From: an uncultured Desulfobulbia bacterium
Lineage (GTDB): Bacteria; Desulfobacterota; Desulfobulbia; Desulfobulbales; SURF-16
DNA: 64,000 nt
Direction of reading: 5' to 3'
NCBI GenBank assembly: GCA_964653055.1
Contig: CAZZCA010000008.1
Location: forward strand, 5,371-69,370
The notes under the pieces were generated by a model. That model saw only the letters and a program-made list of their open reading frames with translations. It made no database searches and was not told where the DNA came from. This document shows positions 33,652 to 56,724 of the stretch, in pieces; position 1 is the first letter of the stretch; each line of letters opens with the position of its first letter. A program made the translations under genes and the position numbers.

Positions 33652-33664
33652 GGAGTATGACAAG

Positions 33665-34477
33665 ATGGCAACAAAAGTAATTGTGGCCGGTGCTGCCGGC
33701 CGGATGGGTCAGCGTATCGGCTATATGGTAAGCCAGAATAACGACCTTGAGCTGGTGGCTGGTTTTGAGCAGGCCGATAATCCGGCAGTGGGTCGGGATG
33801 TGGGTGAGGTTGGTGGTTACGGTGAGGCCGGTGCGACAATTGGTCCTGATCTGACTTCGGTAATTGATAAGGGCGAGGTGATAATTGATTTCACCTTCCA
33901 TACCGCCACCATGGAATTTGCCAGGGAGGCAGCCCGTCAGGGTGTGGCCATGGTTATCGGAACCACCGGGCTCAGCCAGGAAAATCTGGCGGAACTGGAA
34001 GAGCTGGCCAAAGACATTGCCATTGTCCAGGCCCCCAATATGGCGGTGGGTGTCAATGTCCTGTTCAAGATAACTGAAAAAGTGGCGGCCATTCTCGGTG
34101 ATGACTATGACATTGAGGTGATGGAGGCCCATCACCGGATGAAAAAAGACGCACCCAGCGGTACCGCCCTTAAACTTGGGGAAATGGCGGCCCAGGGGGT
34201 TAATCGTGACCTGCAGAAGGTTGGGGTTTTCGAACGAAACGGTATTATCGGTGAAAGGACCGATGACGAAATCGGGATCCAGACCATTCGGGCCGGTGAT
34301 ATTGTTGGTGAGCATACGGTTTATTTTGCCGGCCCCGGTGAACGGGTGGAGCTGACCCACCGGGCCCATAACCGGGATAATTTCGCCCGGGGTGCAGCAG
34401 TGGCTGCCTCCTGGGTTGCCGGTCGGCCCAATGGCCTGTACACCATGTTTGATGTTCTTGGTCTTGGCGATCTTTAG
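33665..34477 (+). CDS. dapB: 4-hydroxy-tetrahydrodipicolinate reductase
   Basis: GAAGRMG, IGTTG, EAHHRMKKDAPSGTA, RAGDIVGEH. Confidence 0.97.
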   Translation: MATKVIVAGAAGRMGQRIGYMVSQNNDLELVAGFEQADNPAVGRDVGEVGGYGEAGATIGPDLTSVIDKGEVIIDFTFHTATMEFAREAARQGVAMVIGTTGLSQENLAELEELAKDIAIVQAPNMAVGVNVLFKITEKVAAILGDDYDIEVMEAHHRMKKDAPSGTALKLGEMAAQGVNRDLQKVGVFERNGIIGERTDDEIGIQTIRAGDIVGEHTVYFAGPGERVELTHRAHNRDNFARGAAVAASWVAGRPNGLYTMFDVLGLGDL

Positions 34478-34489
34478 CAGGGGCTTGTT

Positions 34490-35254
34490 CTGAAGATTGT
34501 TCGTTGTCAGACCGAAGATGGCCCCTCTTTCGGGGTGTTGGTCGGAGATGAAATTCGTCTGCTGACCGGATCCCCCTATGAGGGCTGCCATTATAATGGC
34601 CAGGTGCTTTCTCTGGCCTCCACTCATCTTCTTGCCCCCTGTCAACCCGGTAAGATTATAGCTATAGGCATCAATTATATCCCCCATGCGGCAGAGCTTG
34701 ATTTTGCTGTACCGGCAGAACCCCTTATCTTTCTTAAACCACCATCCGCCCTGATTGGCCCCGGTGAGGCTGTTATGCTGCCGGCCATGAGCTCCCAGGT
34801 GGAGTATGAGGGGGAATTGGCGGTGGTAATCGGCAGGCAGACCAGGTCAATTAGTCAGGATCAGGCCTTGAGCGCGGTTTTGGGCTATACCTGTATCAAC
34901 GATGTCACGGCCCGGGATCTGCAGAAAAGGGATGTTCAGTTTACCCGATCCAAGAGTTTTGATACCTTCGCTCCTCTTGGCCCCTGGATCGAAACCGATC
35001 TTGATCCTGCGGATGTGATGGTTGAGACCAGGCTGAATGGTGAGTTACGGCAACAGGCCAATACCAAAGAGATGGTCCGCTCGGTGGCTGAGCTCATTTC
35101 CTTTATTTCCGGGATAATGACCTTGTTGCCCGGTGATATCATTGCCACCGGTACACCAGCCGGGGTTGGCCCCATGGCCCATGGCGATGAGGTTCAGGTA
35201 GCGGTGGCAGGAATCGGCCCTCTGGTTAATCCAGTAGTGGCGGAGAAGGAGTAG
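34490..35254 (+). CDS. Fumarylacetoacetate hydrolase family protein (probable CTG start at 34490; ORF track uses GTG 34535)
   Basis: KIIAIGINY, IFLKPPS, EYEGEL, NDVTARDLQ, KSFDTF, PGDIIATGTP. Confidence 0.92.
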   Translation: MKIVRCQTEDGPSFGVLVGDEIRLLTGSPYEGCHYNGQVLSLASTHLLAPCQPGKIIAIGINYIPHAAELDFAVPAEPLIFLKPPSALIGPGEAVMLPAMSSQVEYEGELAVVIGRQTRSISQDQALSAVLGYTCINDVTARDLQKRDVQFTRSKSFDTFAPLGPWIETDLDPADVMVETRLNGELRQQANTKEMVRSVAELISFISGIMTLLPGDIIATGTPAGVGPMAHGDEVQVAVAGIGPLVNPVVAEKE

Positions 35255-35752: not shown

Positions 35753-36009
35753 GCCCGATTCGTCTTGTCATTCTTGCCGTTCTCTTTTATCTTCTTTACA
35801 GGTTGATTTTTTCTTCCCGGAAAAAGAAGAAAAAACAGGCTGGCAGTGCAGGAGGAGCCGCGATCCAGGATGTGCTGGTTGAGGATCCAATCTGTCATTC
35901 CTATGTGGCGAAAGGTCAGGCCGTTACAGCGACCCATAAGGGGAAAACCTATTATTTTTGCAGTGACGCCTGTCGCCAGAAATTTCGTCAGCAACAGAAA
36001 GATAATTGA
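35749..36009 (+). CDS. Small membrane-anchored YHS/TRASH domain protein
   Basis: N-terminal TM segment; DPIC...YYFCSDAC. Confidence 0.85.
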   Translation: MSPIRLVILAVLFYLLYRLIFSSRKKKKKQAGSAGGAAIQDVLVEDPICHSYVAKGQAVTATHKGKTYYFCSDACRQKFRQQQKDN

Positions 36010-36041
36010 TTATTTTTAAATAATGGAAAAAGGAGAGGGAA

Positions 36042-36686
36042 ATGAAATTCTTTATCGATACAGCAAATATTGACGAGATCAAAAAGGCGGTGGACATGGG
36101 CCTGGTTGATGGGGTAACTACCAACCCCTCTCTCATTGCCCGGGAGAACAAGCCATTTGTCGAGATTCTCAAAGAGATCTGCGCAGTGGTTGATGGACCT
36201 ATCAGCGCCGAGGTAGTAAGCCTGGACGCCGAGGGAATGCTGGCCGAGGGTCGGGAACTTGCCGCCTTAAATCCCAATATTGTAATTAAGGTTCCACTGA
36301 TAACCGAAGGTCTGAAGGCCGTTAAGATGTTTGCTGCTGAAGGGATCAAAACCAACGTAACTCTGGTCTTTTCTTCAGCCCAGGCCCTGTTGGCGGCCAA
36401 GGCCGGGGCTACCTTTGTCAGCCCCTTTGTCGGTCGGCTGGATGATCTTTCCCAGACCGGTATGGACCTGGTTGCCGATATTCTTAATGTCTATGATAAT
36501 TACGGCTATGAGACCGAGGTGATTGTTGCCAGTGTTCGCAGCCCCATGCATGTAATGGATGCGGCCCTGATGGGAGCCGACATTGCCACCATACCCTTCA
36601 AGGTTATTGCCCAGCTGGCCAAACACCCGCTCACCGATATCGGTATGGAGCAATTTCTGGCCGATTGGGAGAAGCGACAAGGTTGA
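36042..36686 (+). CDS. fsa: Transaldolase / fructose-6-phosphate aldolase
   Basis: [35 protein letters not shown]. Confidence 0.93.
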
Positions 36687-40478: not shown

Positions 40479-40565
40479 GCCGGAGTGGTGAAATTGGTAG
40501 ACGCACGGGATTCAAAATCCCGCGGATGTACGTCCGTGTCGGTTCGATTCCGACCTCCGGCACCA
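40479..40565 (+). tRNA. tRNA-Leu(CAA), 87 nt, long variable arm, encoded CCA
   Basis: GCCGGAG acceptor stem; D-loop TGGTAGAC; anticodon arm CGGGA-TTCAAAA-TCCCG; T-arm GTCGG-TTCGATT-CCGAC; 3' CTCCGGCACCA. Confidence 0.97.
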
Positions 40566-40779: not shown

Positions 40780-42108
40780 TTACCAGCGCCGATACAAATC
40801 TGCCAATTTTTTAATTGGCATTCCGCAGAGCAACCCAAGGATCATAAGCTGATTAATCATGGTGGTACGGAATATGCCAAGCCGTTGCCAGCGCCGAGCC
40901 GATGTTATGGCTTCCCGGGGAAGGGTTATTATTCTGCCCCGACACCGGAGGCGGTGCACAAGCTCAAGATCCTCCATAATAGGCATGGTGGCAAAACCGC
41001 CCACCTCCTCAAACATTCTTTTTTTCATAAACAGTCCCTGATCACCATAGGGATATTTCAATTTTGTCGAACGAAAATTTGCCACCCACTCAACTACCCG
41101 CATTGGCAGCCTGGAATCATTTGTTTTAAAACGAAAGGCCCCTGCTACAGTGGCAGGATTATCCAGGGCATGGATGATCATATTGGCGTATCCGGCTGGC
41201 AGGATTGTGTCGGCGTGCAAAAACAGCAGGATCTGCCCTTGGGCAACACTTGCCCCCCTGTTTAATTGAGCAGCACGGCCCTGGCTAACCTTCAAGATCG
41301 TGGCCCCGCTCTTCAATGCTATTTCCCGAGAATTGTCATGACTGCCTCCATCCACCACAATGACTTCAATATTTTCGGCCCGGTTTATTTGTTTCAGGGT
41401 TGCACCAAGTACCGGCGCCTCATTCAAAGTGGGGATAATAACTGATATAACGGCATTGGAATCAAATATATCTTTATAGTGGGAATTGGAACGGATCATA
41501 TCCAAATCATTTGGCCTGTCCACATCACTTAAAATCGGCAATTCTGCCAAGCGGAGATCAAGCCCTTTGACCTTCTTCCTGGTTTGTTCAAAAACCTGCT
41601 CTGTTCCCCAGTCAATTTCTTTAAATAAGTCCTGGTGTGCGGACTTCATTCCAATAAGGTAATATCCACCATCAGCCGCAGGACCAAGGACAACATCGTT
41701 TTTATTCAAACCCTCCCGGGCACGGGAAATAATATCTGCGGTCAGCCCTGGAATGTCAGTGCCAATGATGATGGTCGCGCCTGTAGCCTCATTTTCCCGG
41801 GTGACCGTTTCGATTGCCCGCTGCATTCGCTGACCAATAGTGCCTGATGGTTGTGATCTGTAATGCAGGTCATGGCCCAGCCAGGCGCGGAAGTCTTTAA
41901 GGGGGGCCCCTGTGCAATATACCGTAACGAGTATGTTTTTTTTGCCGAACTCATTGCGAAAAGACCTGGCAACTCCCACAATGTATTCAGTCATGCGTCT
42001 ATGCAGCTGAGCTGCTTTTTCAGCCCCGAGCGCCGGGATCAATCGGGTTTTTGCCTTTCCTGCCTCCGGAAAACGACAAAAAATCAGTAATCGGCAATTT
42101 AGAGTCAT
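40780..42108 (-). CDS. Fused glycosyltransferase pair: TIGR04282-type (DUF2064/CofC-like) plus TIGR04283-type (GT2)
   Basis: N-half PEAGKAKTRL, IGTDIP, VLGPAADGGYYLIG, SDVDRPNDL; C-half ISVIIPTLNEA, VVDGGSHD, GRAAQLNRGA, LFLHADT, YGDQGLF, PIMED, TSARRW. Confidence 0.88.
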   Translation of the reverse strand: MTLNCRLLIFCRFPEAGKAKTRLIPALGAEKAAQLHRRMTEYIVGVARSFRNEFGKKNILVTVYCTGAPLKDFRAWLGHDLHYRSQPSGTIGQRMQRAIETVTRENEATGATIIIGTDIPGLTADIISRAREGLNKNDVVLGPAADGGYYLIGMKSAHQDLFKEIDWGTEQVFEQTRKKVKGLDLRLAELPILSDVDRPNDLDMIRSNSHYKDIFDSNAVISVIIPTLNEAPVLGATLKQINRAENIEVIVVDGGSHDNSREIALKSGATILKVSQGRAAQLNRGASVAQGQILLFLHADTILPAGYANMIIHALDNPATVAGAFRFKTNDSRLPMRVVEWVANFRSTKLKYPYGDQGLFMKKRMFEEVGGFATMPIMEDLELVHRLRCRGRIITLPREAITSARRWQRLGIFRTTMINQLMILGLLCGMPIKKLADLYRRW

Positions 42109-42212: not shown

Positions 42213-44054
42213 TTATGGTTTTTGCTTAGACAGTAAAGGTATCGAGGACACTCCGGCTATTAGCAGGACCCCGACGAAAAACTCAGGGGTAAGATTTCCC
42301 TGCAGGACTTCCAGTAGAGAACTTGAGAAAACAATATAGGCTATGCAGGCTGGCAGCATACAGATAAAAGAGCTTATTGCGTAATGGCTGAACTTAACCT
42401 TGGTAAGTCCAAAAGCGTAGTTAAGGAGGTTAAAAGGAAAAAGAGGGATCAGTCGGGTAAAGGCGACTGCTTTCCAGCCATGTCTCTCAACCATGGTGTC
42501 TAGTTGTTGCAATTTCGAGCTGCGCAGTTTTTCTTCTATCCAGGACCTACCGATGTAGCGGGAGATGAGGAAGGCAATACAGGCTCCGACGGTAGCGCCG
42601 CTGATGCTGTATATTACGCCCCATAATGGCCCGAACAGGATGCCGCCGATAATGGTGAACGGCAGTCCTGGAAGTAAAAGTGCTGGAGCCGCAGCATAGG
42701 TCAGCATGAAGATAAGAGGAGCCAGTGCTCCATAACCCTGGATTAGCGATTGTAGTTTCTCTTGATCAAGGTAGTGGCTCATCCCGCTCAGGTGGGCTGT
42801 TGCCAGTGCAATGATAAATGTAATCAGGGTCAGCAGCCGTGGCATATTTATTCGCGGTTTCTTGTCTTCCCCGGTAAAGGTCCTAATCCGGCTGGTGGTA
42901 GGATGTATTTTCTTTTTAAAATGGCGTTTCAACTGCAGGCGGTTGAGGTATGTCCAGGGGGCTTTAGAGCTTTTTGTCTTGCCGGCAAGAGTTGCCTCAG
43001 GGGCAAAAAGTAGATCAAGGATGTGACTGGTTGGTGTGATTGAACCCAAAAAGTTAACACAGCCGGCGCAATAGGTAAGAATCAGTCTGCCATTGGCTTC
43101 TTCTTTTCGCCGTCTTCCCCAGACCTTTGCCAAATCATCATTAACACACCCTACAGACCCTCCTTCGCCACAGCAAAGAGTTTTGAGACTATGGTGTTCC
43201 ATCTCTTTAATCGTTAATGATTTTTCCATGGCTATTTTGCGGATAGCCGCATGAATATGCGTATCATTTCTGGTGCTGCATGGGTCGTGTATAGTGATCT
43301 CTGCTGGAATATCTGCTTTTGCCGGCAGTGATGTTTCCGCCAGATATTCGTATACTGTTTTAACATTAAGGTTATTTCCATATTGCTTGAAGACCCGGTA
43401 GCAGTTAGGACAGGCCACCAGGATATTTTCTACCCCATGCTGTAACAGGTATTCTTTCATTTCACCAAACATGGCATGGAAATGTTTTTCTCTGCCAAGG
43501 TCATGGGATGGTTTGGTGCAACAGTCCAGAACTATTCCGAGATCTGGCAGAGTGGTCTGCAGGTGATCGAAGAGAGATTTGACCCTGCCCGGCCTGGTCC
43601 CGGGAAGTGCACACCCCGGGAAAAGGATGGTGTCGCAGTTTTTCGGGAGGGCGTAGTAGGAATAATGCCTGGAGGCCCCCCGTTTCTCATAACCCAGGAT
43701 AGTGTTATAGGCGGAAAAATCCTCTATTCCCACGGCAACAGCCTCCTGCCGCATTGCCAGAAAGAGTGCTGCCGGGTTCAGTCCGATTTTAGGCGGACAG
43801 CTGTTTGCGCATAGGCCGCAGAGGCTGCATTCAAAGGCAAGCCCTGGGGTGTCCAGGGAAAAACTGGCGGCAATGGCCTTTGGAGAGCCATTTTTTTGGA
43901 GAAAGGAGCATTCTTTTTGACAGAGTCCGCATTCGATACATTTGTCGACATGACACGCAAGTTCTTTCTGAATAGTGAGGCTTTGTGGTGAATACGATGT
44001 TTCAGGCATGATATGTCCGGGCAAAGAGAAAGCTGTATTTATGGCAGGGTCCAA
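42213..44054 (-). CDS. Fe-S/CCG-domain oxidoreductase (HdrD/GlpC-like) fused to a C-terminal DedA/TVP38 (VTT) membrane domain
   Basis: CIECGLCQKEC and CSLCGLCANSCP ferredoxin motifs; PGC, CCTKP, ACPNC, HDPCS, CCGEGG, YCAGC; C-terminal LPGLPFTIIGGILFG...RLIPLFPFNLLNYAFG. Start may be ATG 44009. Confidence 0.88.
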   Translation of the reverse strand: MDPAINTAFSLPGHIMPETSYSPQSLTIQKELACHVDKCIECGLCQKECSFLQKNGSPKAIAASFSLDTPGLAFECSLCGLCANSCPPKIGLNPAALFLAMRQEAVAVGIEDFSAYNTILGYEKRGASRHYSYYALPKNCDTILFPGCALPGTRPGRVKSLFDHLQTTLPDLGIVLDCCTKPSHDLGREKHFHAMFGEMKEYLLQHGVENILVACPNCYRVFKQYGNNLNVKTVYEYLAETSLPAKADIPAEITIHDPCSTRNDTHIHAAIRKIAMEKSLTIKEMEHHSLKTLCCGEGGSVGCVNDDLAKVWGRRRKEEANGRLILTYCAGCVNFLGSITPTSHILDLLFAPEATLAGKTKSSKAPWTYLNRLQLKRHFKKKIHPTTSRIRTFTGEDKKPRINMPRLLTLITFIIALATAHLSGMSHYLDQEKLQSLIQGYGALAPLIFMLTYAAAPALLLPGLPFTIIGGILFGPLWGVIYSISGATVGACIAFLISRYIGRSWIEEKLRSSKLQQLDTMVERHGWKAVAFTRLIPLFPFNLLNYAFGLTKVKFSHYAISSFICMLPACIAYIVFSSSLLEVLQGNLTPEFFVGVLLIAGVSSIPLLSKQKP

Positions 44055-44202: not shown

Positions 44203-44622
44203 TTATTTTTTGACCAACAGGTCACTATATGGCCATTTCTCCACACCGCCTCTTAAGATGGTTAGTTTCTCCTCGGGAACCCCTTGGCTCTTCATGTAAG
44301 AATAGGTTCTTTTGGCCCCGCCTCCGCCTCTGGGACAAACGACAACCACATTGTTGGCGGTGTCTTTAAAGGATTTTACGGCCACGTCGAGCTGTGCCCG
44401 CTGGGCATCTGTTTTGACGGGGTAGGCATTCGTCTCCAGGGAACCGGGAAAATGATGGGCTGTAAATTCATCTTTCACCTGGATGTCGACAATGATCATG
44501 GGCTTATTGTTTTCCAGCCATTGTTTAAACTGATTGGTCTCCAGGTAATTAAATTGCTCAAAAATAAAAGCTGCATTGAGCAGGCAGATAAGGGAAATAG
44601 CAGTAATAGTTAATTTTTTCAT
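44203..44622 (-). CDS. Secreted single-domain rhodanese
   Basis: Signal-like N-terminus MKKLTITAISLICLL; IVDIQ...HFPGS; active loop VCPRGGG; LRGGVEKW; AAGAGG RBS. Confidence 0.85.
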   Translation of the reverse strand: MKKLTITAISLICLLNAAFIFEQFNYLETNQFKQWLENNKPMIIVDIQVKDEFTAHHFPGSLETNAYPVKTDAQRAQLDVAVKSFKDTANNVVVVCPRGGGGAKRTYSYMKSQGVPEEKLTILRGGVEKWPYSDLLVKK

Positions 44623-44726
44623 GTGGTTTTCCTCTTGGTGTAGTAGTGAAATTGTCATACCATTTGAATAATTAAAAACAAGTTATCTCGTATTTTCCGA
44701 TATTGCAAATTGGAAATATCTATAGT

Positions 44727-44779: not shown

Positions 44780-45691
44780 ATGGAAATCAATAAACTTGAA
44801 GCCTTCTGTAAGGTGGTTGAGCTAAAGAGTTTTACCCGGGCGGCTGAAGCGGTGTTTCTTACCCAGCCAACTGTCAGCGAACATATTCGCAGTCTTGAGC
44901 AGGAGCTTGGAGAAAAACTCCTGGACAGGATGGGACGAGTTGTGGAACCGACTCCGGTGGGGCGTTTATTTTATGGATATGCCCGTAAAATTCTTAAAAC
45001 CCGGAATGAGGCCAAGGAGGCGGTGGCACAGTTCAGTGGCAATCTGGTCGGTAGTATTCTGGCTGGTTGCAGTACCATACCTGGAACGTATTTACTCCCG
45101 GAATTGATTGGCGGATTTCGTGCCCGTTACCCTTCCATTAAAACGACTCTGCATATAAGTAGTTCGCGAATTATTGCTGGAAAGGTGTTGGAGGGTGAGT
45201 TGGATTTTGGGGTGGTTGGGGCCAAATGGCGGGAAAGTGGCCTGAACTGGGCCCAGATGTTTCATGATGAGTTGATTCTGGCCGTACATCCTGATCATCC
45301 GTGGGCGATGGACGGCAAGCCGGTGCCATTGGCCAGAGTTATGCAGGAACCTTTTATTCTGCGTGAGACTGAATCCGGCACCAGGAAAGTATTTTCCCTG
45401 ATTCTTGCCGAAAACGGGCTGAAGGAAAACGATCTTCGCGAAGTTGCTGAAATAGGCTCCACTGCAGCAATTAAAGAAGCGGTCAAGGCAGGAATCGGAA
45501 TCTCTATTCTATCCCGGTGTGCTCTTAAGGATGATATTAACTGTGGCCGAATTGCGGCTGTAAATATTCACAGTCAGACACTGGAACGGTCATTTTACCT
45601 GGTGCAGCGTAAAAATAGAGAGCTTTCCCCTGTTGCTTCGGTGTTTTTGGAATATCTCCGGGATAATGCAGAGTCGGTTGGTGTAATTTAG
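44780..45691 (+). CDS. LysR-family transcriptional regulator (resembles the CysL / selenium-metabolism-associated subfamily)
   Basis: HTH FCKVVELKSFTRAAEAVFLTQPTVSEHIRSLE; GCSTIPG; RETESGTRK; IKEAVKAGIGIS. Confidence 0.93.
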   Translation: MEINKLEAFCKVVELKSFTRAAEAVFLTQPTVSEHIRSLEQELGEKLLDRMGRVVEPTPVGRLFYGYARKILKTRNEAKEAVAQFSGNLVGSILAGCSTIPGTYLLPELIGGFRARYPSIKTTLHISSSRIIAGKVLEGELDFGVVGAKWRESGLNWAQMFHDELILAVHPDHPWAMDGKPVPLARVMQEPFILRETESGTRKVFSLILAENGLKENDLREVAEIGSTAAIKEAVKAGIGISILSRCALKDDINCGRIAAVNIHSQTLERSFYLVQRKNRELSPVASVFLEYLRDNAESVGVI

Positions 45692-48600
45692 TCTTGATTC
45701 TTGAGTTTTATGTTATGCGTTGAAAAAGTTTTTTCCCGATTAGACCACAGGGGGCATTTCTGGTGAATACAATCCGAATTTTTTGGGTATTGATTACAGA
45801 CAGGCTTAGAGTCAGCGATTAAGTCAAGGCCCATCTCCCGGCTGATCAATGCCGCCTCCTGTAGGGTGGCAACCGATTCCCGCAGACAGCAACGGGCCCC
45901 TGTCACCTCAGATAGCTTGAGCAAGATCCGACCAACTGCCCCCATGGCCAACTGTCGCCCCTCGGGTGTCATCGGAGTACTCTGGAGAATTATGGCAAAG
46001 CCAATTCCTGCCCCTACAGCCGCCCCGCAATTGCCCATAAAGCCACAGGAGCCCCCTGGCACTCTGGCTCCGCGAGCCAGGGCAAGATCCACCATTTCGT
46101 TCTTGTCGATTCCTTGACTATTAGCAAAGGCGGCAACCATAACCGCTGGAACCAGTAAATGGTGTTCTGGACCATGCATGGGAACAGCCGGATGACTGCG
46201 AATTTTAGTTAACAACGATAAAATATCACTTTCAGTACTTCTTGAGCAGATATGCCTTATCACCTCAGCACCTTCCTGCTGGTGACATGAGTCACAGACA
46301 AAATGACCACCCTTACACAAGACAGAGGCCCCTGTCGAAGATCCGCAATAATGACAGACAGTATCTTTTTCCTGCCATCCATAAACAAGTTCTTGACCAC
46401 AGACCATACAACCGGATGTTAAGTGAGGAAGAGATTCAGGAGCAGGTGAGATTTTTTCCTGGTTTTTAAGCATGGCCAATGGAAATGGCTGGGGATCGCT
46501 CTTGTTACCGGTACAAGCACAGCCACCGGCCATGTCCTGATTACTGACTGCGCCCTGTTTATCAAGTACCCATAATGATGTGTTATCCTCATGGGGGTTC
46601 ATACCCCTGGTCAGCGTGGTGCGCTTACCTTTGAGCAGGAATTGACCATCTTCTCGATAAAGGCCGCCATGGGGGCCAGGATAAATAACCTCGAGTTCAT
46701 CTTGCTCGAAGGCCTGCTTGAAGGCTACAAAGGTAAGAGAATAGAAATCGACTCCCCCAAGTTGGCGATAAGGGAATCGTTTAAGCAAGGAGATATCTCT
46801 GAAACCGGACGCCTGAAGCATGGCCACAAGTTTTTCCTGCTCCATAGCGCCGCCAAGACATTCTCCCCGCAGTTTATGGTTAACCATTATTGATATCGGC
46901 AAGGGACCATCGGTTACTATATCTGAAACCACCAATCGCCCTCCTGGTTTTAAAATTCGGAAGGCCTCTGCCATGGTCTGCCGTTTATCAGCGCTGAGGT
47001 TAATCACACAATTTGAGATTACTGCATCTGCCATCTGATCAGCCAAGGGGATGGCCTCGAGAAAACCTTTGCAGAAATTAACATTATCATAACCGAGACG
47101 TGCAACTACATCTCTTTTGGAATCAGCTGCAAGGTCCAGCATGTCATCGGTCATGTCAATTCCAATTACCCGGCCTTTTCCACCCACCGCGTCAGCGGCC
47201 ATAAAACACTCCACTCCGGAGCCACTGCCCAGATCAACCACAACCTCACCAGTCTCTGGTGCGGCATCATCCACCGGGCTGCCACATCCGTAAGAGCGCT
47301 TACGGCTAACCTCAGGGATATAGCCGGCATCTTGCTGGCTGCCAGCAAAAGGGTTGATTATTTCTTTATTGTCCTTTCTTGCGGCCTGGGCATAAAAATC
47401 ACCCACCAACGACCGGTCTGCGCCACCAGTTAAGGATATCAGACAATTGCAATGAGTAAGGCTTACCCCGGTCTGATCCTCATCGGCAGAAGGGCAATCA
47501 TGACGAACATCGCCCATGCGCAGAATTATCTCTGGAGTTTCCGGCTGATTGCAGTTAGCTGCCTGTCGACTGATCAGGTAGAGGCATATTTTATTATAAA
47601 GTTCAAGGTAGGGATCATGGCCAACCAATTCGCCGGCCTGGATAAAACTATGGTCATGATCACCGCCACCGGTAAGAAAACGGAAAGGATCATCAGCCGT
47701 CCGGGAGTGATCGAGAAGGCTTGCCCGCCGAACCTTATAACTGATTTTGCTATTACGCCATACTTCAGCCAACCCCTGGCTAAGATGACCCATGTTCATT
47801 TCATCTAAAGCCACCAGGGCCGGGGAAGGATAAATACAGGCATCAGGGCCAATGGCCAGGGATTGCCAGCCACTATTGCTGAGATCGTGTCTGGTTCCTC
47901 GAGGTGCCATTACCTGGGCCCGCAGGTAGTCAAAATTGTCAATTATTACTCCCAGTTTGCCGGCAACCTGATGGGCCTTTAGCAGGTTATTGAAAATTTG
48001 CTCAGGAGCAACAAATCTGCTGTCATCGCCTTTACCGCGTTTGAAATACCAGAGGTAGTGAATATTCTTGACTCCCATTTCGGCGGCTACCAGGGTCAAG
48101 GTCGGCAAATCATTTACATTATCACGTTGAACAACGGTGGAAAGGGTTACAGCAAAACCTTCAGCCTGTAACAAATTGACTGAATTAATTAATTTCTGGT
48201 AGGTACCTTTGCCTCGAATAAGGTCATGCCCTTTTTCAAGACCGTCCATACTTAGCTGGAGGTGAAAACGCTTACGGGGCAGGCGGCGCAGATCATCAAG
48301 GTGACGGGGGACAGCCATGCCATTTGTTAATACCACAACATGGAGTTTGGGGTTTGCGGCAAGCAGGTCAGCTAATCGGGGTAACAGGCCAGGGTAGACC
48401 AATGGCTCACCACCGGTAAAGATAAGAAGCTCAAGACCAAGTTCAAGGGCTTGCTTGATTGCCAAATCAAGATATTCCTGGGGAAGATGATCAGCCTGGG
48501 CCGGTGAACTGCTGAAAAGGCAGTGACAGCAGGACAGGTCACAGGCATTGGTCAGGTGAATCCACAACTCCCTTAACCTGGTAAGGGTCAGATGCTTAAA

Positions 48601-48858
48601 TCGTCCCTGATAATGAGCAATGGCCCCGGGATCAATGAGCAGACGAAGACGTTCAAGATGAAAGTCCGGCGATGACTCATCAACAGAATAACCCTGTATA
48701 ACTCTGTCTGCTGATGCTGATGGCACAAACCAGTCCGGAACATCTGGGTTAAGGTAAATGGGGCAGCCGGCAAATTCATAGCGTTGCCAATTAGTATTTT
48801 TAATGGTCCAATTTGTCATAGTTAAGAATTCCCTACTATATAATAACTCTGGATTCAA
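45688..48858 (-). CDS. Radical SAM / degenerate SPASM + ArsM-like As(III) methyltransferase + DUF5714 fusion (start may be ATG 48819)
   Basis: CDLSCCHC (C106-C110-C113), FTGGEP; MTase SYGCGSP, VDLGSGSG, IGIDMT, ISNCVINL, GECLGGA; Cys-rich C-terminus CMVCG...CHYCG...HGPEHH...GSCGFMGNCGAA...RCC. Confidence 0.85.
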   Translation of the reverse strand: MNPELLYSREFLTMTNWTIKNTNWQRYEFAGCPIYLNPDVPDWFVPSASADRVIQGYSVDESSPDFHLERLRLLIDPGAIAHYQGRFKHLTLTRLRELWIHLTNACDLSCCHCLFSSSPAQADHLPQEYLDLAIKQALELGLELLIFTGGEPLVYPGLLPRLADLLAANPKLHVVVLTNGMAVPRHLDDLRRLPRKRFHLQLSMDGLEKGHDLIRGKGTYQKLINSVNLLQAEGFAVTLSTVVQRDNVNDLPTLTLVAAEMGVKNIHYLWYFKRGKGDDSRFVAPEQIFNNLLKAHQVAGKLGVIIDNFDYLRAQVMAPRGTRHDLSNSGWQSLAIGPDACIYPSPALVALDEMNMGHLSQGLAEVWRNSKISYKVRRASLLDHSRTADDPFRFLTGGGDHDHSFIQAGELVGHDPYLELYNKICLYLISRQAANCNQPETPEIILRMGDVRHDCPSADEDQTGVSLTHCNCLISLTGGADRSLVGDFYAQAARKDNKEIINPFAGSQQDAGYIPEVSRKRSYGCGSPVDDAAPETGEVVVDLGSGSGVECFMAADAVGGKGRVIGIDMTDDMLDLAADSKRDVVARLGYDNVNFCKGFLEAIPLADQMADAVISNCVINLSADKRQTMAEAFRILKPGGRLVVSDIVTDGPLPISIMVNHKLRGECLGGAMEQEKLVAMLQASGFRDISLLKRFPYRQLGGVDFYSLTFVAFKQAFEQDELEVIYPGPHGGLYREDGQFLLKGKRTTLTRGMNPHEDNTSLWVLDKQGAVSNQDMAGGCACTGNKSDPQPFPLAMLKNQEKISPAPESLPHLTSGCMVCGQELVYGWQEKDTVCHYCGSSTGASVLCKGGHFVCDSCHQQEGAEVIRHICSRSTESDILSLLTKIRSHPAVPMHGPEHHLLVPAVMVAAFANSQGIDKNEMVDLALARGARVPGGSCGFMGNCGAAVGAGIGFAIILQSTPMTPEGRQLAMGAVGRILLKLSEVTGARCCLRESVATLQEAALISREMGLDLIADSKPVCNQYPKNSDCIHQKCPLWSNREKTFSTHNIKLKNQD

Positions 48859-48951: not shown

Positions 48952-49035
48952 TTATTTCTGGACCAGCCAGAGGCTTAGCTGGGGGCAGTAGGTGATAAGG
49001 GCCAGGGTCAGCAGGAGTAGGCCGAGGAAGGGCAG
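48952..49035 (-). repeat. Intact copy of the boundary repeat (3' end of dctM)
   Basis: 81% identical to 40629-40710, same orientation. Confidence 0.8.
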
Positions 49036-50235
49036 GGTGGCCCGGTAGAGTTTGATGATCGGTTGTTCAAAGCGGTAGCTGGCGAGAAAGAGGTTGAGGC
49101 CCACCGGTGGGGTGCAGTAGCCGATCTGAAGGTTGGTGAGGAAGATGATGCCGAGATGGATGAGATTGATGTCGTAGCTCTTGGCAATGGGGACAATCAG
49201 CGGCACTACCAGGACCAGGGCAGAGAAGATGTCAAGCATGGAACCAATAATCAGCAGAAACACATTTAAGAGCAGAAGGAAGGTGTATTTATTGTTGACA
49301 TATTGGTGGATAAACTCAAATATCCGGGTTGGGATCTCCATATCCACCAGGAAATTGGTGGAGGCCATGGAGGCACCCAGGATTATTAGGATCCCCCCGA
49401 ACAGCATCATTGAATGGACCATTAATCCGGGCAGACGCTGCCAGGAGATGTCTTTATAGATCACCACTTCCACAATCAGGGCGTAAAGAACGGTAACCGC
49501 TGCTGCTTCGCCCACCACGAAAAACCCCCCATAGATCCCCCCCAGGACAAGAAATGGCAGGGGTAGTTCCCAGGCAGCTTCTCTTAGTCCCTTTATAATT
49601 TCTGATTTATCTATGGGTTTATTTTCTTTGGGGGGGCTCTTTTTCATGCAGTAGATGCTGATGATGGTCAGCATCAGGAGGCCGGGGATGAGGCCGGCTA
49701 AAAAGAGCTGGTCGATTCGGGTCTCGGCAATTACTCCGAAGAGGATCAGGGGCAGGCTGGGTGGGAAAAGAAGGCCGATGCTGCCGGACGAGGTGATGAG
49801 TCCCAGGGAGAATTTTTCCGAATAATTATCCTTGAGCATGGCCGGCATGAGCAGGCCACCCATGGCAAAGATGGTTACCCCGGATGCACCGGTGAAGGCG
49901 GTGAAGATGGCACAGATTAGAAGGGCAACCATGGCAAGCCCCCCCGGCATCCAGCCCAGAAGCAGGCGGGAAAGATTGAGTAGCCTTTGGGGGGTATTGC
50001 TTTCCGAGAGGATGGATCCGGCAAAGATGAACAGGGGGAGAGCCAGCAGGAGTGGGGTGTCGGCCAGCCGGGACATTTCGATGATTACCACCGAAATGTC
50101 GATACCAGCCCCATAAAAAGAGATCAGGGCAATAGCGGCGATGACAATAAAGAGAGGGCAGCCGATGACGGCTAGCAGGATGGGGATGAATTTAAAAAGG
50201 ACCATGCTATTTTCCGCCCCTGGCAAGCCCGGCAA
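48952..50235 (-). CDS. dctM: TRAP transporter large permease
   Basis: LLALPLFIFAG, GSIGLLFPPS, TPPVGLNLF; about 12 TM segments. Confidence 0.94.
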   Translation of the reverse strand: MPGLPGAENSMVLFKFIPILLAVIGCPLFIVIAAIALISFYGAGIDISVVIIEMSRLADTPLLLALPLFIFAGSILSESNTPQRLLNLSRLLLGWMPGGLAMVALLICAIFTAFTGASGVTIFAMGGLLMPAMLKDNYSEKFSLGLITSSGSIGLLFPPSLPLILFGVIAETRIDQLFLAGLIPGLLMLTIISIYCMKKSPPKENKPIDKSEIIKGLREAAWELPLPFLVLGGIYGGFFVVGEAAAVTVLYALIVEVVIYKDISWQRLPGLMVHSMMLFGGILIILGASMASTNFLVDMEIPTRIFEFIHQYVNNKYTFLLLLNVFLLIIGSMLDIFSALVLVVPLIVPIAKSYDINLIHLGIIFLTNLQIGYCTPPVGLNLFLASYRFEQPIIKLYRATLPFLGLLLLTLALITYCPQLSLWLVQK

Positions 50236-50701
50236 TTATTTTAAGCAGGTCCCCTGTAAAATGGAGGGTGATCAGAGCAAAGCCCAGGGGGAAGATCAGG
50301 CTCCAGATCCAGGCCGGCATGAGCAGGCTGGTGCCGCCGTATGTCATTTCGGATGAGGTAAAGATAATTGCCGCTGCGGTTAAGGCTCCGGTCACCAGTA
50401 TGGAGCAGAGATTAATGACGAGTTCCAGCCAGGTTTGCACCTTGTTTGGTGCCAGGTAAGAGGCAATGTCAATGGCGATGTGTTTGCCTTCCCGGGTGGC
50501 CACCACTGCCCCCATCATCCCTACCCAGAGGACCAGTTGACGGATTAAGGGCTCACTCCAGAGAAAACCGGTCCCCATGGTGGTGCGCAGGATGATCTGG
50601 CTGCAGGCGATAATGATGATTGCTGTCAGCAGCAGGCAGAGCAGGCCGTCTTCCAGCAGCCTGAGCCAGCGGCTGCCTTTATCAAGAAACTGCAGGCTCA
50701 T
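50207..50701 (-). CDS. dctQ: TRAP transporter small permease
   Basis: Four TM segments; WSEPLIRQLVLWVGMMGA...REGKHIAID. Confidence 0.9.
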   Translation of the reverse strand: MSLQFLDKGSRWLRLLEDGLLCLLLTAIIIIACSQIILRTTMGTGFLWSEPLIRQLVLWVGMMGAVVATREGKHIAIDIASYLAPNKVQTWLELVINLCSILVTGALTAAAIIFTSSEMTYGGTSLLMPAWIWSLIFPLGFALITLHFTGDLLKIIAGLARGGK

Positions 50702-51690
50702 TTGCGATACTGATCAAGGATTTGCATGGTGCTTTGCAGAACTTCCCGGGAAAAGGCCTTGCCGGTGATCTGGCGAACGGTCTGGTCCCGCAGGTTGAGT
50801 AATTCCTCTTCTGTCCCAGGCTGAGGCTGGATCATCTGGACACCGTTTTGTTGCAGGACCTGGCGGGCCTCATGGTTACTTTTGCGGGTATCGGCCAGTA
50901 AAAGGCCGAAATGTTTCTCGGCTGCCTTTTTCATGATGGCCTGATAGGGTGCGGGCAGGCGGGAGAAGTGGCGATGATCGAGGAGGAAGGCTCCATAGGC
51001 ATAACCAAAGGGGATGTCGGCAATATAGCGGGCCTTGGTGAACCATTGCAGGACGATGGAGCCGTAAAAACTATTGAATACCGTTTCCACCATTCCGGTC
51101 TGCAACGAGGTAAGAACATCTGGGATGCCAAGAGGGGTGGGGGCTATGCCCAGGGTCTGCAGATAGGCAGAGCTGATCGGGTCCCCTTCCGGGGTCCAGC
51201 ACCTGCTTTTTTGCAGGTCGGACAAGGTGGTCATGGGGGTGGTTGACATGGTGTAGATAAAGCCGATTTCGGTAAGGGCCAGCAGCTGAAGGCCACGGTG
51301 GCTGAAGACCTGGTCGAAATGGGGCCGCAGACCATGGCGGACCTGATCCACCTCCTGGTATGAGCGAAAGAGAAAGGGGATGCCCATTACCCGGAAATCA
51401 GGGATGATCTCGCCGATACCGGTCATGGTGAAGCCGCCGCCATGGAGCTGACCAACCCGCATCTTGCGGAGCATGGCCTTGTCGTCTCCCATTATGCCGC
51501 CGGGGTAGATCTTAAAGCCGATTTCCCCGTTGCTTTTTTCTTGGACCTCCCGGGTAAAGTCGCGGAACCGTTTCACCCAGATACTGCCTTCCGGCGCTAT
51601 GGAGGCAATTTTGAAAAGATAACGAGGGCCGGCCAGGGCGGGTAGCGCCATACATAGGCTTAAGAGTAGGGTGATGATGGTTGTTTTCAT
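50698..51690 (-). CDS. dctP: TRAP substrate-binding protein (TatP(T)-type DctP)
   Basis: Signal peptide; KIASIAPEGSIW; YPGGIMGDD; LQTGMVE. Confidence 0.9.
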   Translation of the reverse strand: MKTTIITLLLSLCMALPALAGPRYLFKIASIAPEGSIWVKRFRDFTREVQEKSNGEIGFKIYPGGIMGDDKAMLRKMRVGQLHGGGFTMTGIGEIIPDFRVMGIPFLFRSYQEVDQVRHGLRPHFDQVFSHRGLQLLALTEIGFIYTMSTTPMTTLSDLQKSRCWTPEGDPISSAYLQTLGIAPTPLGIPDVLTSLQTGMVETVFNSFYGSIVLQWFTKARYIADIPFGYAYGAFLLDHRHFSRLPAPYQAIMKKAAEKHFGLLLADTRKSNHEARQVLQQNGVQMIQPQPGTEEELLNLRDQTVRQITGKAFSREVLQSTMQILDQYRK

Positions 51691-51691
51691 A

Positions 51692-52534
51692 TTAGAAGTA
51701 TAGCTCGATATCGGCCAGTAATTGTCTGGCCCGTTTTTTGGCAATTTGATTGGCCAGGGTCAGTTCCGGCCTGTCGGTCAGGGGGAAATAAATTACTTCC
51801 TGGAGCAGGGACTGATAAAGTTTACGGTTGAAGGTGGTGCGGGCGTAAGTTTCAGCATAGCTCACCTGGACCGGCAGAAATTGGCGTTTGCTCAGTTTCA
51901 AGGCTCGTTCAAAATGGTTGTGGCTGGCCTTGGGCCGACCCCCGAAAGTAGGTGGCCTGGAGCCGTAAATGGCCCCCAGGAGGAGATGGGCGCCGCCATA
52001 ATAATAGCCATCATCCAGTTCGATGACCTGTTTCATGATTTCTTCCACCTGGACGAGAGCTGCCATGGCCGCCGGGCTTCCTTGCTGGAAATTGATCCAG
52101 CTTGCCAGGCTGTAGCCTCCCCAGAAGAGATGATCGATTTCTCGGCATTGGGCCAGGCTCTGGCTGAATTCAGGGCCGGCATTTTGGGCATTGACTCCGC
52201 ACCTGGTCAGTAGGTTCTGGCCGTAGTCTCTTGCCCGAAAGCTCATTTCCTCTGCCCGCTCCTTGCGCTCGCAGGCGGCAAGGGCGGTGCTATAGGCAGT
52301 ATAGGCCTTGGTTGCCTGGATCAATAATTCAGCATTATCCGGGTTATTGGCGGTCATGCTGTCTATTATCAGGAGAAAGGCCGGGGCACCATCGCATACC
52401 AGATCAAGATCAGACTGGTATTGAAGGCCGGTTATTGCCGGAGGGATCACTGAGTTATAGACCATGCTGGCGCAACCGGTCAGCAGGACGGTCAGCACGG
52501 TGATGATAATATTCTGCCGGAAATGACGACTCAT
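51692..52534 (-). CDS. tatT: TRAP-associated TPR lipoprotein (TatT)
   Basis: Lipobox LLTGC; YYYGGAHLLLGAIYGSRPPTFGG; HFERAL; NQIAKKRA; first gene of the dctPQM operon. Confidence 0.8.
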   Translation of the reverse strand: MSRHFRQNIIITVLTVLLTGCASMVYNSVIPPAITGLQYQSDLDLVCDGAPAFLLIIDSMTANNPDNAELLIQATKAYTAYSTALAACERKERAEEMSFRARDYGQNLLTRCGVNAQNAGPEFSQSLAQCREIDHLFWGGYSLASWINFQQGSPAAMAALVQVEEIMKQVIELDDGYYYGGAHLLLGAIYGSRPPTFGGRPKASHNHFERALKLSKRQFLPVQVSYAETYARTTFNRKLYQSLLQEVIYFPLTDRPELTLANQIAKKRARQLLADIELYF

Positions 52535-54102: not shown

Positions 54103-54327
54103 ATGGCTGGTGGCAGTAAAGAGCTGATGAAACTCATATCAGTGTTCGGTACCATTGGCATAACCATGGCAGCTTCTGTGTTCGTTGGTCTTGGTATCGG
54201 TTATTATATTGACCATGAATTATTTGATGAAAAAACGAGTCCATGGTTTACCCTGATTTTTCTGGGGTTTGGCATTGTGGCCGGTTTTAAGAATCTCTGG
54301 CAGATGTCGAGGCGTAAGGATTTATAA
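54103..54327 (+). CDS. atpZ: AtpZ/AtpI-family protein (ATPase gene 1)
   Basis: Two TM segments; GLGIGYYID...PWFTLIFLGFGIVAGF; first gene of the atp operon. Confidence 0.85.
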   Translation: MAGGSKELMKLISVFGTIGITMAASVFVGLGIGYYIDHELFDEKTSPWFTLIFLGFGIVAGFKNLWQMSRRKDL

Positions 54328-54752
54328 TGAAGAGTATTGATCAAGATAAGCTTGCGGATTTTCCTCTTCGCAGGGTTGAGATACTCAATTGGGTACTTGC
54401 TGCCCTTTTGACTTTGATCGCTGCTTTCACTACGCCATATTTTATTGCTAAGAGCGTGTTTATTGGCGGATTGTTGGCCAATATCAGTTACCTCTTCCTG
54501 AAGAGAGACCTGAAGAATTTTCTTCAGGGAAAGCTGCTGTTAAGCGGCCAGGAGAGGATGGCTAAGGTCCAGTTTTATTTTAAGTATTATGTCAGGCTGG
54601 GAGTGCTGGCGATAATACTTTATATTCTGGTACGCAGGGGCGTTGCTCATCCCCTGGGCCTGCTGGTAGGTCTGTCGGTAATAGTTTTAAGTATAACCAT
54701 AACGGTAACAACAGTTATCAAAAGGTTCTTTTTTACTGCCGAAGAGGCATAG
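54327..54752 (+). CDS. atpI: ATP synthase subunit I
   Basis: Four TM segments, GGLLANISY, between atpZ and atpB. Confidence 0.82.
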   Translation: MKSIDQDKLADFPLRRVEILNWVLAALLTLIAAFTTPYFIAKSVFIGGLLANISYLFLKRDLKNFLQGKLLLSGQERMAKVQFYFKYYVRLGVLAIILYILVRRGVAHPLGLLVGLSVIVLSITITVTTVIKRFFFTAEEA

Positions 54753-55914: not shown

Positions 55915-55955
55915 GATTAGCATCTTCCGGCAATATGTCGGAAAACAGGATTGAG

Positions 55956-55985
55956 AAAAAGGTCGCATTTATGCGGCCTTTTTTT
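55956..55985 (+). terminator. Rho-independent terminator after atpE
   Basis: AAAAAGGTCGCAT-tt-ATGCGGCCTTTTTTT. Confidence 0.85.
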
Positions 55986-55998
55986 ATTGGTTAATAAT

Positions 55999-56724
55999 AT
56001 GACAGATGTGGTTATTGAGCCGGGTCGGCAACGGGGTGAACCTGAGATTGCCGGGCCATGCCTTTTTTTTATTAACCCCCATGAATCAAGCAAGGCATCT
56101 AAAGAAGCTGTTGCCAGGGGTGCAATCAGGCATAATCTCTTTCATAGCTCGCTTTATGAGTTAGATGATGGCAGCGGTCAGGTATGGGCTGGCCCAGCAA
56201 TTGGTGCGCCCATGGCAGTGATGACCCTGGAGAAGCTTATTGCCCTTGGAGTGGATACCTGCATTGTGGTGGGCTGGTGTGGTTCCCTGCAGGCGGAGTT
56301 ACCCATTGGCACAGTATTGGTTCCTGATCAGGTAATCAGCGGTGAGGGTACTTCCGCATATTATGCCGGTCCTGATAATGATCTGCCGGCAGCTGATCTT
56401 TCCAAAGACCTTTTTTCTTATCTCGAGGCAGCTGATTTTGCTGTGCAGCGTGGGCCGGTGTGGAGTACCGATGCTCCATATCGTGAGCATTGGTCGAAGA
56501 TGGCTGATCTGCGTGGGCAAGGTGTGGCGGCCGTTGATATGGAATTTTCTGCTCTTACGGCAGCGGCGTCGTTTCGGGGAATAAGCCTTGCCGGTGCTTT
56601 GCTGGTTTCGGATGAAATTGGCGATCATGTCTGGACCCCTGGTTTCCGCCATAAATTATTTAGGCGCCAGAGCAGGCAGCTCTTTGAGTGCCTGGGTGAT
56701 TTCTTCGGTGCTAAATCCAGCTGA
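55999..56724 (+). CDS. Nucleoside phosphorylase (PNP/UDP family)
   Basis: GPAIGAPMA, VGWCGSL, VWSTDAPYRE, AVDMEFSAL, LVSD. Confidence 0.88.
   Translation: MTDVVIEPGRQRGEPEIAGPCLFFINPHESSKASKEAVARGAIRHNLFHSSLYELDDGSGQVWAGPAIGAPMAVMTLEKLIALGVDTCIVVGWCGSLQAELPIGTVLVPDQVISGEGTSAYYAGPDNDLPAADLSKDLFSYLEAADFAVQRGPVWSTDAPYREHWSKMADLRGQGVAAVDMEFSALTAAASFRGISLAGALLVSDEIGDHVWTPGFRHKLFRRQSRQLFECLGDFFGAKSS

Follow-up and report, generated by a model that had tools for sequence, protein, structure and literature searches.

A conserved fusion of a radical SAM enzyme, an ArsM-like methyltransferase and DUF5714 in Desulfobulbales, with a possible role in organo-metalloid synthesis

The fusion gene and its modules

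The window analysed here is a stretch of 64,000 nucleotides from an uncultured Desulfobulbia bacterium (contig CAZZCA010000008.1, assembly GCA_964653055.1, positions 5,371 to 69,370). On its minus strand, it contains a gene in which an enzyme of the radical S-adenosylmethionine (SAM) type, an ArsM-like methyltransferase and a DUF5714 module are joined. The open reading frame (ORF) spans 45688..48858(-) and has 1056 codons when counted from a TTG at 48858. The original prediction gave this length for the protein; the ORF is indeed present from that codon, but the product is likely shorter. A start at the ATG at 48819 (M14 of the longer ORF), with AGGGA upstream, appears likely and gives a coding sequence at 45688..48819(-) for 1,043 aminoacids. 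A database protein of this length, P0001, is 100% identical to the fusion product. Because of this later start, the residue numbers first given are 13 too high, and P0001 numbering is that of the longer ORF minus 13.

Pfam finds the three predicted domains, in the predicted order: Radical_SAM at residues 101-250 (8e-20), Methyltransf_31 at 536-682 (8e-30) and DUF5714 at 867-1038 (1e-52), in longer-ORF numbering. The model of the full-length fusion has a mean predicted local distance difference test (pLDDT) of 84.8 and a predicted template modelling score (pTM) of 0.72.

In a search of 5.8 billion proteins we found more than 120 full-length homologues, of 995-1,109 aminoacids and 48-53% identical, all with the three Pfam domains. 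Their source names are only “DUF5714 domain-containing” or “methyltransferase domain-containing” protein. Scans of genomes and metagenomes gave approximately 100 loci, with the gene located in 85. The three domains are in one ORF at 74 of these 85, complete genomes included. Since these 74 loci come from independent assemblies, an assembly or gene-calling artefact is excluded; the original prediction had named this artefact beforehand as a way in which it could fail. When the family-specific part that follows the radical SAM core was used for an exhaustive profile search, only 42 clusters among 1.84 billion representatives reached E<=1e-30, and 199 reached E<=1e-3. By its sequence profile, the fusion family is compact and well defined.

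The radical SAM core (48109..48558) is supported by PF04055 (8e-20), invariant cysteines and fold matches. The CX3CX2C motif predicted at C106/110/113 of the longer ORF was found (CDLSCCHC, 48520-48543; C93/97/100 in P0001). Both this motif and FTGGEP, a SAM motif of the GGE type, are invariant across 120 homologues and are therefore under selection. With a partial TIM-barrel fold, the module has the radical SAM superfamily's features. In NCBIfam, the best matches of the N-terminal 476 residues are the Rv1681 family, SPASM peptide maturases, MoaA and HpnH, all far under cut-off. As for structure, the N-terminal ~450 residues superpose on CteB, anSME, SkfB, BlsE and PqqE (Foldseek, template modelling (TM) score up to 0.75 normalised by target), with SuiB also among the neighbours.

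The core is followed by a family-specific, degenerate SPASM/twitch-like domain and linker (47410..47952), recognised by its conserved motifs and a weak Pfam SPASM match (E = 0.14). Its fold is retained; the seven-cysteine SPASM motif (CX9-15GX4C...CX2CX5CX3C...C) is absent from the core family. An invariant GGGDxDHS (GGGDHDHS at 47647-47670 in the window) stands where CX2CX5CX3C would be, and the cysteine of the SPASM hairpin is replaced by YPS. The cysteines remaining outside the SAM cluster are C343 (nearly invariant), C442, C457 and C459, in P0001 numbering; those in HDCP (47491-47502) and THCNC (47443-47457) are invariant. THCNC belongs to the end of the radical SAM/SPASM part, not to the start of ArsM, since the distant clade members P0426 and P0443 also end with it. 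The complete SPASM motif is kept by distant members, for example CRNCKIKFYCGGGC in P0426. We detected no sequence relationship of the module to ArsL. The radical SAM module is a descendant of the SPASM/twitch clade that has lost the SPASM cysteines, and is neither ArsS nor ArsL.

Upstream of the core, residues 12-62 of P0001 (48634..48786) form a beta-beta-beta-alpha-alpha subdomain, delimited on the secondary structure of the full-length model. A Pfam PqqD (PqqD/RRE) domain takes this position in P0443, and the subdomain may be a remnant of such a domain.

Next, the methyltransferase core (46768..47373) is of the class I SAM-dependent ArsM/AS3MT type in both sequence and fold, as had been predicted. 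All five of its best PDB sequence matches (phmmer) are ArsM/AS3MT, at 3e-35 to 1e-29, compared with 5e-8 for the next methyltransferase type. With Foldseek, ArsM/AS3MT is again at the top for the full-length model (4e-18, 30-32% identity). The core is 42-50% identical to those of bacterial ArsM, and contains a DLGSGSG motif. The three cysteines first noted, in SYGCGSP (47284-47286), ISNCVINL (47008-47010) and GECLGGA (46858-46860), are at exactly the codons given. They align with Cys72, Cys174 and Cys224 in a HMMER alignment to CmArsM (4fr0/4kw7), as claimed, and are invariant in the 120 homologues.

The ArsM-type C-terminal beta-domain (46600..46767) is supported by the NF040538 match, which extends to residue 780, by Foldseek alignments of 272-314 columns (up to 314 to CrArsM) and by strands in the model. 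An ArsM-like C-terminal segment had been predicted, and this domain bears it out in part; residues 754-809 of the longer ORF are instead a disordered tether. This tether (46432..46599, ~55 residues) joins the ArsM domain to DUF5714, with pLDDT below 50 at P0001 residues 741-746 and 760-796. Its vicinal cysteines are conserved: the window has GGCAC (46513-46527), the family consensus is NSCC...CC, and C767 and C769 are invariant.

Finally, the DUF5714 module (45724..46425; PF18978) covers positions 1-173 of the 173 in the Pfam model, with 178.6 bits against a cut-off of 26.2. An AlphaFold2 model based on an 81-sequence alignment (pLDDT 91, pTM 0.85) has two beta-hairpins, then seven helices. 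The hairpin pair resembles a zinc ribbon with Cys4/Cys-His groups (CMVC, CHYC, CKGGHFVCDSCH), and the helical bundle carries HGPEHH, CGFMGNCGAAVGAG, RCC and a C-terminal cysteine triad. Every Cys/His motif first listed (the three of the hairpins, HGPEHH and RCC) was found, and their cysteines and histidines are invariant or nearly so in the 120 homologues. The invariant or near-invariant features are two CxxC pairs, a Cx3Hx2Cx2CH group, HGPEHH, CGxxGxCGAxxGxG, RCC and three C-terminal cysteines, with ~15 invariant Cys/His overall. A PDB search with this model gave nothing better than E = 0.41 (TM ~0.2). In the literature searched we found no mention of DUF5714, and the three-part fusion enzyme is undescribed there.

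Homology of DUF5714 to C_GCAxxG_C_C (PF09719) was considered and rejected, with no Pfam match even at E = 1; the two are alike only in a CGAxxG-like motif and in operon position (locus L173). The MbdU model NF045648 matches at 132-135 bits (cut-off 600) over profile positions 23-276 of 468, with no in-frame TGA. A review counts MbdU, which is DUF5714-related, among double selenoproteins and gives it a “CU” motif (PMC13188914). We suspect that this motif corresponds to the RCC site of DUF5714.

Distribution and gene neighbourhood

Most hosts are Desulfobulbales (Thiovibrio, Hydrosulfovibrio, Desulfogranum, Desulfocapsa and Electrothrix). The others are Desulfuromusa, Desulfobacteraceae, Eisenbacteria, Chitinivibrionales, Pirellulaceae and Acidobacteriota. 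Some homologues, of ~800-845 aminoacids, seemed to end where DUF5714 begins. Selenocysteine read-through was rejected for these, because translation past the stops gave no in-frame DUF5714; for the same reason, they are either frameshifts or genuine forms with only the radical SAM and methyltransferase parts.

The system around this radical SAM clade is older than the three-part fusion. Its constant partners are a VTT/DedA membrane protein, a disulfide reductase and the transferases TIGR04282/TIGR04283; an ArsM-type methyltransferase and a Cys-rich protein, either DUF5714 or C_GCAxxG_C_C, also recur, fused or adjacent. P0379, a stand-alone radical SAM protein of the clade with 474 aminoacids and GGGDSDHS, heads an operon at L171:6001-13425 (the same in L172). 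It is followed by DUF547, VTT, a flavin adenine dinucleotide (FAD) disulfide reductase, a GT87-like membrane protein and GT2/DUF2064; in L171, the DUF547 and GT87-like proteins have no NCBIfam assignment. P0426 has the reverse order, with a canonical four-cysteine ArsM placed N-terminal to a radical SAM part with intact SPASM. The operon that it ends (L173:3035-9136) contains YdjY, VTT, a flippase-like protein (TIGR00374/HpnL-like), a C-GCAxxG-C-C (seleno)protein, a 159-aminoacid unassigned ORF and TIGR04283. Furthermore, P0428, P0439 and P0446 are fusions of radical SAM/SPASM and methyltransferase with intact SPASM and without DUF5714. ArsM-type methyltransferases thus joined this clade at least twice independently, since both orders occur, with or without DUF5714. 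As they were fused more than once, cooperation of the two enzymes is strongly evidenced.

At other fusion loci, the commonest conserved partner is a VTT/DedA gene, on the same strand and within ~2 kb at 29 of 83 loci, usually directly downstream. A MerA/Lpd-like FAD disulfide reductase (GGDCLHFGCVPSK) adjoins the VTT gene at several loci, and this coupling seems to be a conserved theme. TIGR04282/04283 genes lie beside the fusion or its relatives at approximately 11 loci (L013, L016, L017, L149, L154, L160, L162, L163, L169, L171 and L173). One of them, L169 from Desulfuromusa, was found from the glycosyltransferase side, with the pair 3 kb from the fusion. L016 mirrors the window, with genes in the order VTT, double rhodanese, GT1, GT2 and fusion, though that fusion is only 33% identical. 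In L163:180-4076, GT2 is itself joined to the end of the fusion (radical SAM, methyltransferase, DUF5714 and GT2; 1,298 aminoacids), with an FAD disulfide reductase, VTT and a GH130 phosphorylase downstream to 8012. Other sugar enzymes near fusions are GH63-like proteins and zwf, besides GH130.

DUF3047 adjoins the TIGR04282/04283 gene at two unrelated loci with the fusion (L149:7519-8283 and L169:8371-9069), and may be a further pathway member. In Desulfatiglans (L170:9474-11777), TIGR04282/04283 has at ~2 kb an ArsR-type regulator, an ArsP_1 permease, Thioredoxin_3 and DUF2703. No other arsenic-type context was seen near the members of the system.

Stand-alone DUF5714 was found at L167:472-7366 and L166:4719-12795, together with TrsS (of a radical SAM selenoprotein family), a DVU_1556 methyltransferase, DVU_1557, a DVU_1553 CoA-ligase, NF045663 and a MocA-like protein. 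The L167 cluster adjoins a molybdoenzyme of the xanthine dehydrogenase family. The set of TrsS, DVU_1556 and stand-alone DUF5714 is a paralogous “kit”. The names MbdU and TrsS are reportedly from Haft and Tolstoy, in mSystems in 2025. The DVU_1556-type methyltransferase keeps cysteines at positions like Cys174 and Cys224 of ArsM (ECSFSL, SGCLG).

In the window, the order on the minus strand is TRAP transporter genes, fusion gene and, past a convergent LysR gene, a downstream operon. The first gene of this operon encodes a rhodanese-domain protein (44203..44658). The second (42213..44054) encodes a VTT/DedA membrane domain to which a heterodisulfide-reductase-like module, with 4Fe-4S dicluster (Fer4) and CCG, is fused. 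The soluble part of this protein corresponds to positions 301-670 of 759 in NF045663 “diclust_near_Sec” (5.7e-62). The presence of dicluster/CCG and VTT/DedA in one polypeptide is unusual. The third (40780..42108) is a fusion of TIGR04282, a CofC/MobA-like nucleoside triphosphate (NTP) transferase, and TIGR04283 (GT2), both over curated cut-offs. A tRNA-Leu(CAA) on the plus strand (40479-40565) bounds the cluster just past the end of this GT1-GT2 gene. The LysR regulator (44780..45691, plus strand) is divergent from the operon and convergent with the fusion gene.

The tripartite ATP-independent periplasmic (TRAP) transporter genes (48952-52534, minus strand) encode TAtT (TPR-type T-component), DctP, DctQ and DctM, and are directly upstream of the fusion, ~100-130 bp from it and on its strand. 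They are preceded by the region's best promoter-like site, at 52570-52543. Overall, the promoter scan is at chance level (14 sites versus 14.3 in shuffles). Terminator-like sites number 23 versus 13.0 in shuffles (standard deviation 4.2), with none that delimits the fusion gene. In other fusion loci, neither LysR nor the Fer4/CCG module nor TRAP was found, so all three are window-specific.

The annotated flanks (32.8-40.3 and 54.3-58.1 kb) contain housekeeping genes, without ars or sel genes. The ORFs at 33629-34687(-), 35924-36400(-) and 54327-54752(+), of 352, 158 and 141 aminoacids, have no NCBIfam match at E<=1e-8. Among the housekeeping genes, 7 kb away, 55951-56724(+) encodes a protein of the purine-nucleoside-phosphorylase/AMP-nucleosidase family with a weak HpnG-like match (1.5e-10). 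That it removes the base from an adenosylated product is speculative. A genomic island at the flanking tRNA-Leu was rejected: the GC content of 42-55% has no clear step and no integrase was seen. The Rfam scan gave tRNA only, with no riboswitch and no SECIS element.

Proposed function and alternatives

The coupling of ArsM-type methylation to radical SAM chemistry is well supported. The evidence strongly supports that both reactions act on the same thiophilic substrate, with the product passing to nucleotide- or sugar-transfer steps and membrane steps. From the interpretation first offered, the conserved fusion, the methyltransferase family and this coupling are retained. The radical SAM domain is not of ArsS/ArsL type. 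In our preferred model, the fusion would make a carbon-bonded arsenic compound, to which its partners would attach a sugar or lipid. We give this model a little less than an even chance. Homology makes a trivalent arsenical the likeliest substrate.

In terms of mechanism, the ArsM module would methylate a trivalent metalloid that is bound to thiols and held on cysteines, in the likeliest case As(III) or methylarsenite. Another carbon-metalloid bond would then be made by the radical SAM module. For this step, 5'-deoxyadenosyl transfer, the reaction of ArsS on dimethylarsenite, is the simplest guess, and it would explain the nucleotidyl- and glycosyl-transferases. From the nucleoside-like product, the NTP-transferase-like and GT2 enzymes could make a glycoside, possibly lipid-linked, which the VTT/DedA protein would handle at the membrane. 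That methylation comes before radical As-C bond formation, and that the substrate is channelled, we only infer.

Vicinal cysteines of the tether and DUF5714 may act as a swinging thiol relay, passing the metalloid between sites. Ordinary ArsM needs four cysteines for the conversion of As(III) to MAs(III), while Cys44 and Cys72 are dispensable from MAs(III) to DMAs(III) (PMC6138428). Its cycle leaves disulfides, and re-reduction by thioredoxin is required (PMC6138428). In the fusion, the thiols of the tether and DUF5714 would supply the reducing equivalents otherwise given by Cys44 and thioredoxin. They could in turn be recycled by the neighbouring disulfide reductase, which would be Fer4/CCG in the window and the FAD MerA/Lpd-like enzyme elsewhere. 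With such a relay in place of Cys44 and thioredoxin, the missing Cys44, the vicinal cysteines on the tether, the presence of DUF5714 and the recurrence of a disulfide reductase would all fit.

Several observations weigh against this arsenic model. No ars gene is found among the 21 annotated ORFs of the window (32.8-58.1 kb), and an Acr3-type gene lies within 5 kb of none of 84 fusion loci, compared with 16 of 64 canonical arsM loci. In Desulfobulbales, the fusion gene is syntenic with the housekeeping genes fpg, gatCA and 5-formyltetrahydrofolate (5-FTHF) cyclo-ligase, so a core function would fit better than the handling of a toxic trace element. The ArsS model TIGR04167 is absent from the 25 best NCBIfam matches of the radical SAM part (the weakest at 45.8 bits), and Pfam gives no DUF3641 (PF12345) match in the fusion. 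At three sampled TIGR04282/04283 loci, no ArsS or DUF3641 gene adjoins, and one of them has the fusion at 3 kb, another ArsR/ArsP at 2 kb; the “arsenosugar” label of these two families therefore comes from curators' names only. The methyltransferase is under the curated NCBIfam cut-offs for ArsM: 217.7 versus 263 for PRK11873, 158.8 versus 500 for NF040538 and 104.6 versus 400 for NF038099 (arsenosugar ArsM). When the fusion was aligned with 59 stand-alone canonical ArsMs, the Cys44 equivalent, which is a loop with Cys or Cys-Cys that follows the VRExY helix and precedes the GCG motif, was present in 34 of the 34 listed. This loop, at the position of human AS3MT Cys32, is deleted in the fusion family. 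The window LysR is named “selenium metabolism-associated” (NF040786), and several partners carry selenium-linked family names. Lastly, the choice of 5'-deoxyadenosyl transfer over H-abstraction is a guess by analogy. Taken by its sequence, the methyltransferase belongs to the ArsM family, yet it is not a standard ArsM.

Some of these points could be turned into a case for selenium (or Te, Sb) as the substrate of the same architecture. The product would then contain methylated, carbon-bonded selenium, for example in a glycoside resembling selenosugars, with rhodanese and disulfide reductase delivering reduced selenium and VTT/DedA serving for uptake or export. The lack of ars genes near the fusion fits this, as does the LysR, at 302.9 bits against the NF040786 cut-off of 250. 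Rhodanese recurs (window and L016), and so does a reductase of the MerA/GR/TrxR class. The Fer4/CCG protein of the window matches “diclust_near_Sec”, and the relatives of the Cys-rich partners are selenoproteins (MbdU, the C-GCAxxG-C-C (seleno)protein, TrsS). The gene is also syntenic and apparently vertically inherited in selenoprotein-rich organisms, and a DedA protein has reportedly been linked to selenite uptake in Ralstonia metallidurans. On the contrary, the methyltransferase is specifically ArsM/AS3MT-like, with a cysteine arrangement that binds trivalent arsenicals. The “selenium-associated” names mostly reflect selenocysteine-containing homologues or phylogenetic profiles and not selenium substrates, the LysR is seen in the window only, and we know of no precedent for C-Se bond formation by a radical SAM enzyme. 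We consider selenium rather unlikely.

Maturation is another possibility. Here the radical SAM enzyme would modify a Cys-rich protein or peptide (possibly its own tether, DUF5714 or a partner) or build a metal cofactor on DUF5714, and the methyltransferase would act on a thiol or metal-bound ligand instead of free arsenic. The structural neighbours CteB, anSME, SkfB, PqqE and SuiB are peptide or protein maturases, and the PqqD/RRE domain of P0443 and the N-terminal subdomain of the fusion point the same way. In the TrsS cluster, stand-alone DUF5714 beside a molybdoenzyme also resembles a cofactor-maturation kit. However, the SPASM cysteines needed by peptide maturases are gone, and neither a conserved gene for a small precursor peptide nor a target enzyme was seen next to the fusion. 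It recurs with sugar or nucleotide transferases and with membrane proteins, and in P0426 a canonical four-cysteine ArsM is fused to the same radical SAM clade. We hold maturation to be quite improbable.

The weakest alternative, an ordinary detoxifying ArsM with extra domains and no radical C-As chemistry, has ArsM homology in its favour, as well as the NCBI models of ArsM fused to Cys/Sec-rich domains (AhpD, DUF2284), which show that such add-ons occur; with the invariant CX3CX2C and FTGGEP, the absence of an ars operon context and the loss of the Cys44 loop required for As(III) methylation, this, even when pooled with the artefact excluded above, is very improbable. The remaining probability we assign to none of these readings.

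Returning to the model of a carbon-bonded metalloid product, we read the fusion as a third, undescribed pairing of ArsM and radical SAM, besides ArsS and ArsL. The fullest version would be a widespread and so far unrecognised anaerobic pathway to a glycosylated or lipid-linked organo-metalloid. Its radical SAM enzyme would be the third independent one coupled to ArsM, with the SPASM site remodelled to Asp/His/Cys, and the tethered DUF5714 would be a metalloid chaperone and disulfide relay. Taken as a whole, this version is possible but doubtful.

Comparison with known systems

To our knowledge, only two radical SAM routes to carbon-arsenic bonds exist, both alongside ArsM: ArsS for arsenosugars and ArsL for arsinothricin. 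If the proposal is true, the fusion would be a third such route, of different ancestry, fused to its own methyltransferase and with an unexplored Cys-rich fold. If the substrate is selenium, it would be the first radical SAM enzyme to form a C-Se bond. In sulfur-cycling Desulfobulbales, among them cable-bacteria relatives, the fusion is common; it is also scattered in other anaerobic phyla, for which we know of no description of organoarsenical or organoselenium biosynthesis. The proposal also offers testable functions for DUF5714, TIGR04282/TIGR04283, VTT/DedA beside disulfide reductases, and DUF3047. Cultured hosts of the fusion exist, so direct testing is possible.

With ArsM/AS3MT (CmArsM 4FR0/4FS8, CrArsM 5EVJ, human AS3MT 8XT7), the fusion shares the class I core and the C-terminal beta-domain. 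It differs in lacking the Cys44 loop, in having the methyltransferase embedded between radical SAM and DUF5714, and in lying outside ars operons.

SsArsS works with SsArsM in the arsenosugar biosynthesis of Synechocystis (PMC8552651), where ArsS transfers 5'-deoxyadenosyl to dimethylarsenite (PMC8552651; bioRxiv 10.1101/2024.02.01.577332). The fusion likewise pairs a radical SAM enzyme with an ArsM-type methyltransferase and adjoins TIGR04282/TIGR04283. Unlike ArsS, it is SPASM-derived and not TIGR04167, and has no DUF3641; its two activities are fused, and its hosts are anaerobic Desulfobulbales and others, not cyanobacteria.

In the arsinothricin pathway, ArsL and ArsM also combine a radical SAM C-As bond with methylation. 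ArsL holds arsenite on a Cys-rich RCCLKC and not on the Fe-S cluster (bioRxiv 10.1101/2024.02.01.577332). In DUF5714 of the fusion, RCC is invariant (RCCLRE in the window), and vicinal cysteines are present in the tether and linker. This RCC is inside a folded domain, while the ArsL motif is in a C-terminal tail, and the likeness is of three residues only. As evidence on arsenite binding, this resemblance is a lead only.

In the case of the SPASM/twitch enzymes (CteB, anSME, SkfB, PqqE, BlsE), the N-terminal fold of the fusion matches, but CX2CX5CX3C is gone from the core family. The TrsS/DVU_1556/DVU_1557/MbdU neighbourhood (NF045646, NF045667, NF045645, NF045648) has the same kit in separate genes: radical SAM, a small ArsM-related methyltransferase, DUF5714 (MbdU-like), an NF045663-type oxidoreductase and a MobA-like NTP transferase. 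In contrast to the fusion, its radical SAM enzyme is Tes/HMPT-methylase-like (22% identity), its methyltransferase is 25% identical, and the context is a molybdenum hydroxylase instead of GT2 and VTT.

Finally, the hopanoid side-chain pathway follows the same logic of steps, with adenosyl transfer by HpnH, a nucleosidase (HpnG), a GT2 enzyme (HpnI) and a flippase-like protein (HpnL). The matches to HpnH, HpnG (55951-56724) and HpnL (L173) are far under cut-offs, and the likeness is thus an analogy of logic and not homology.

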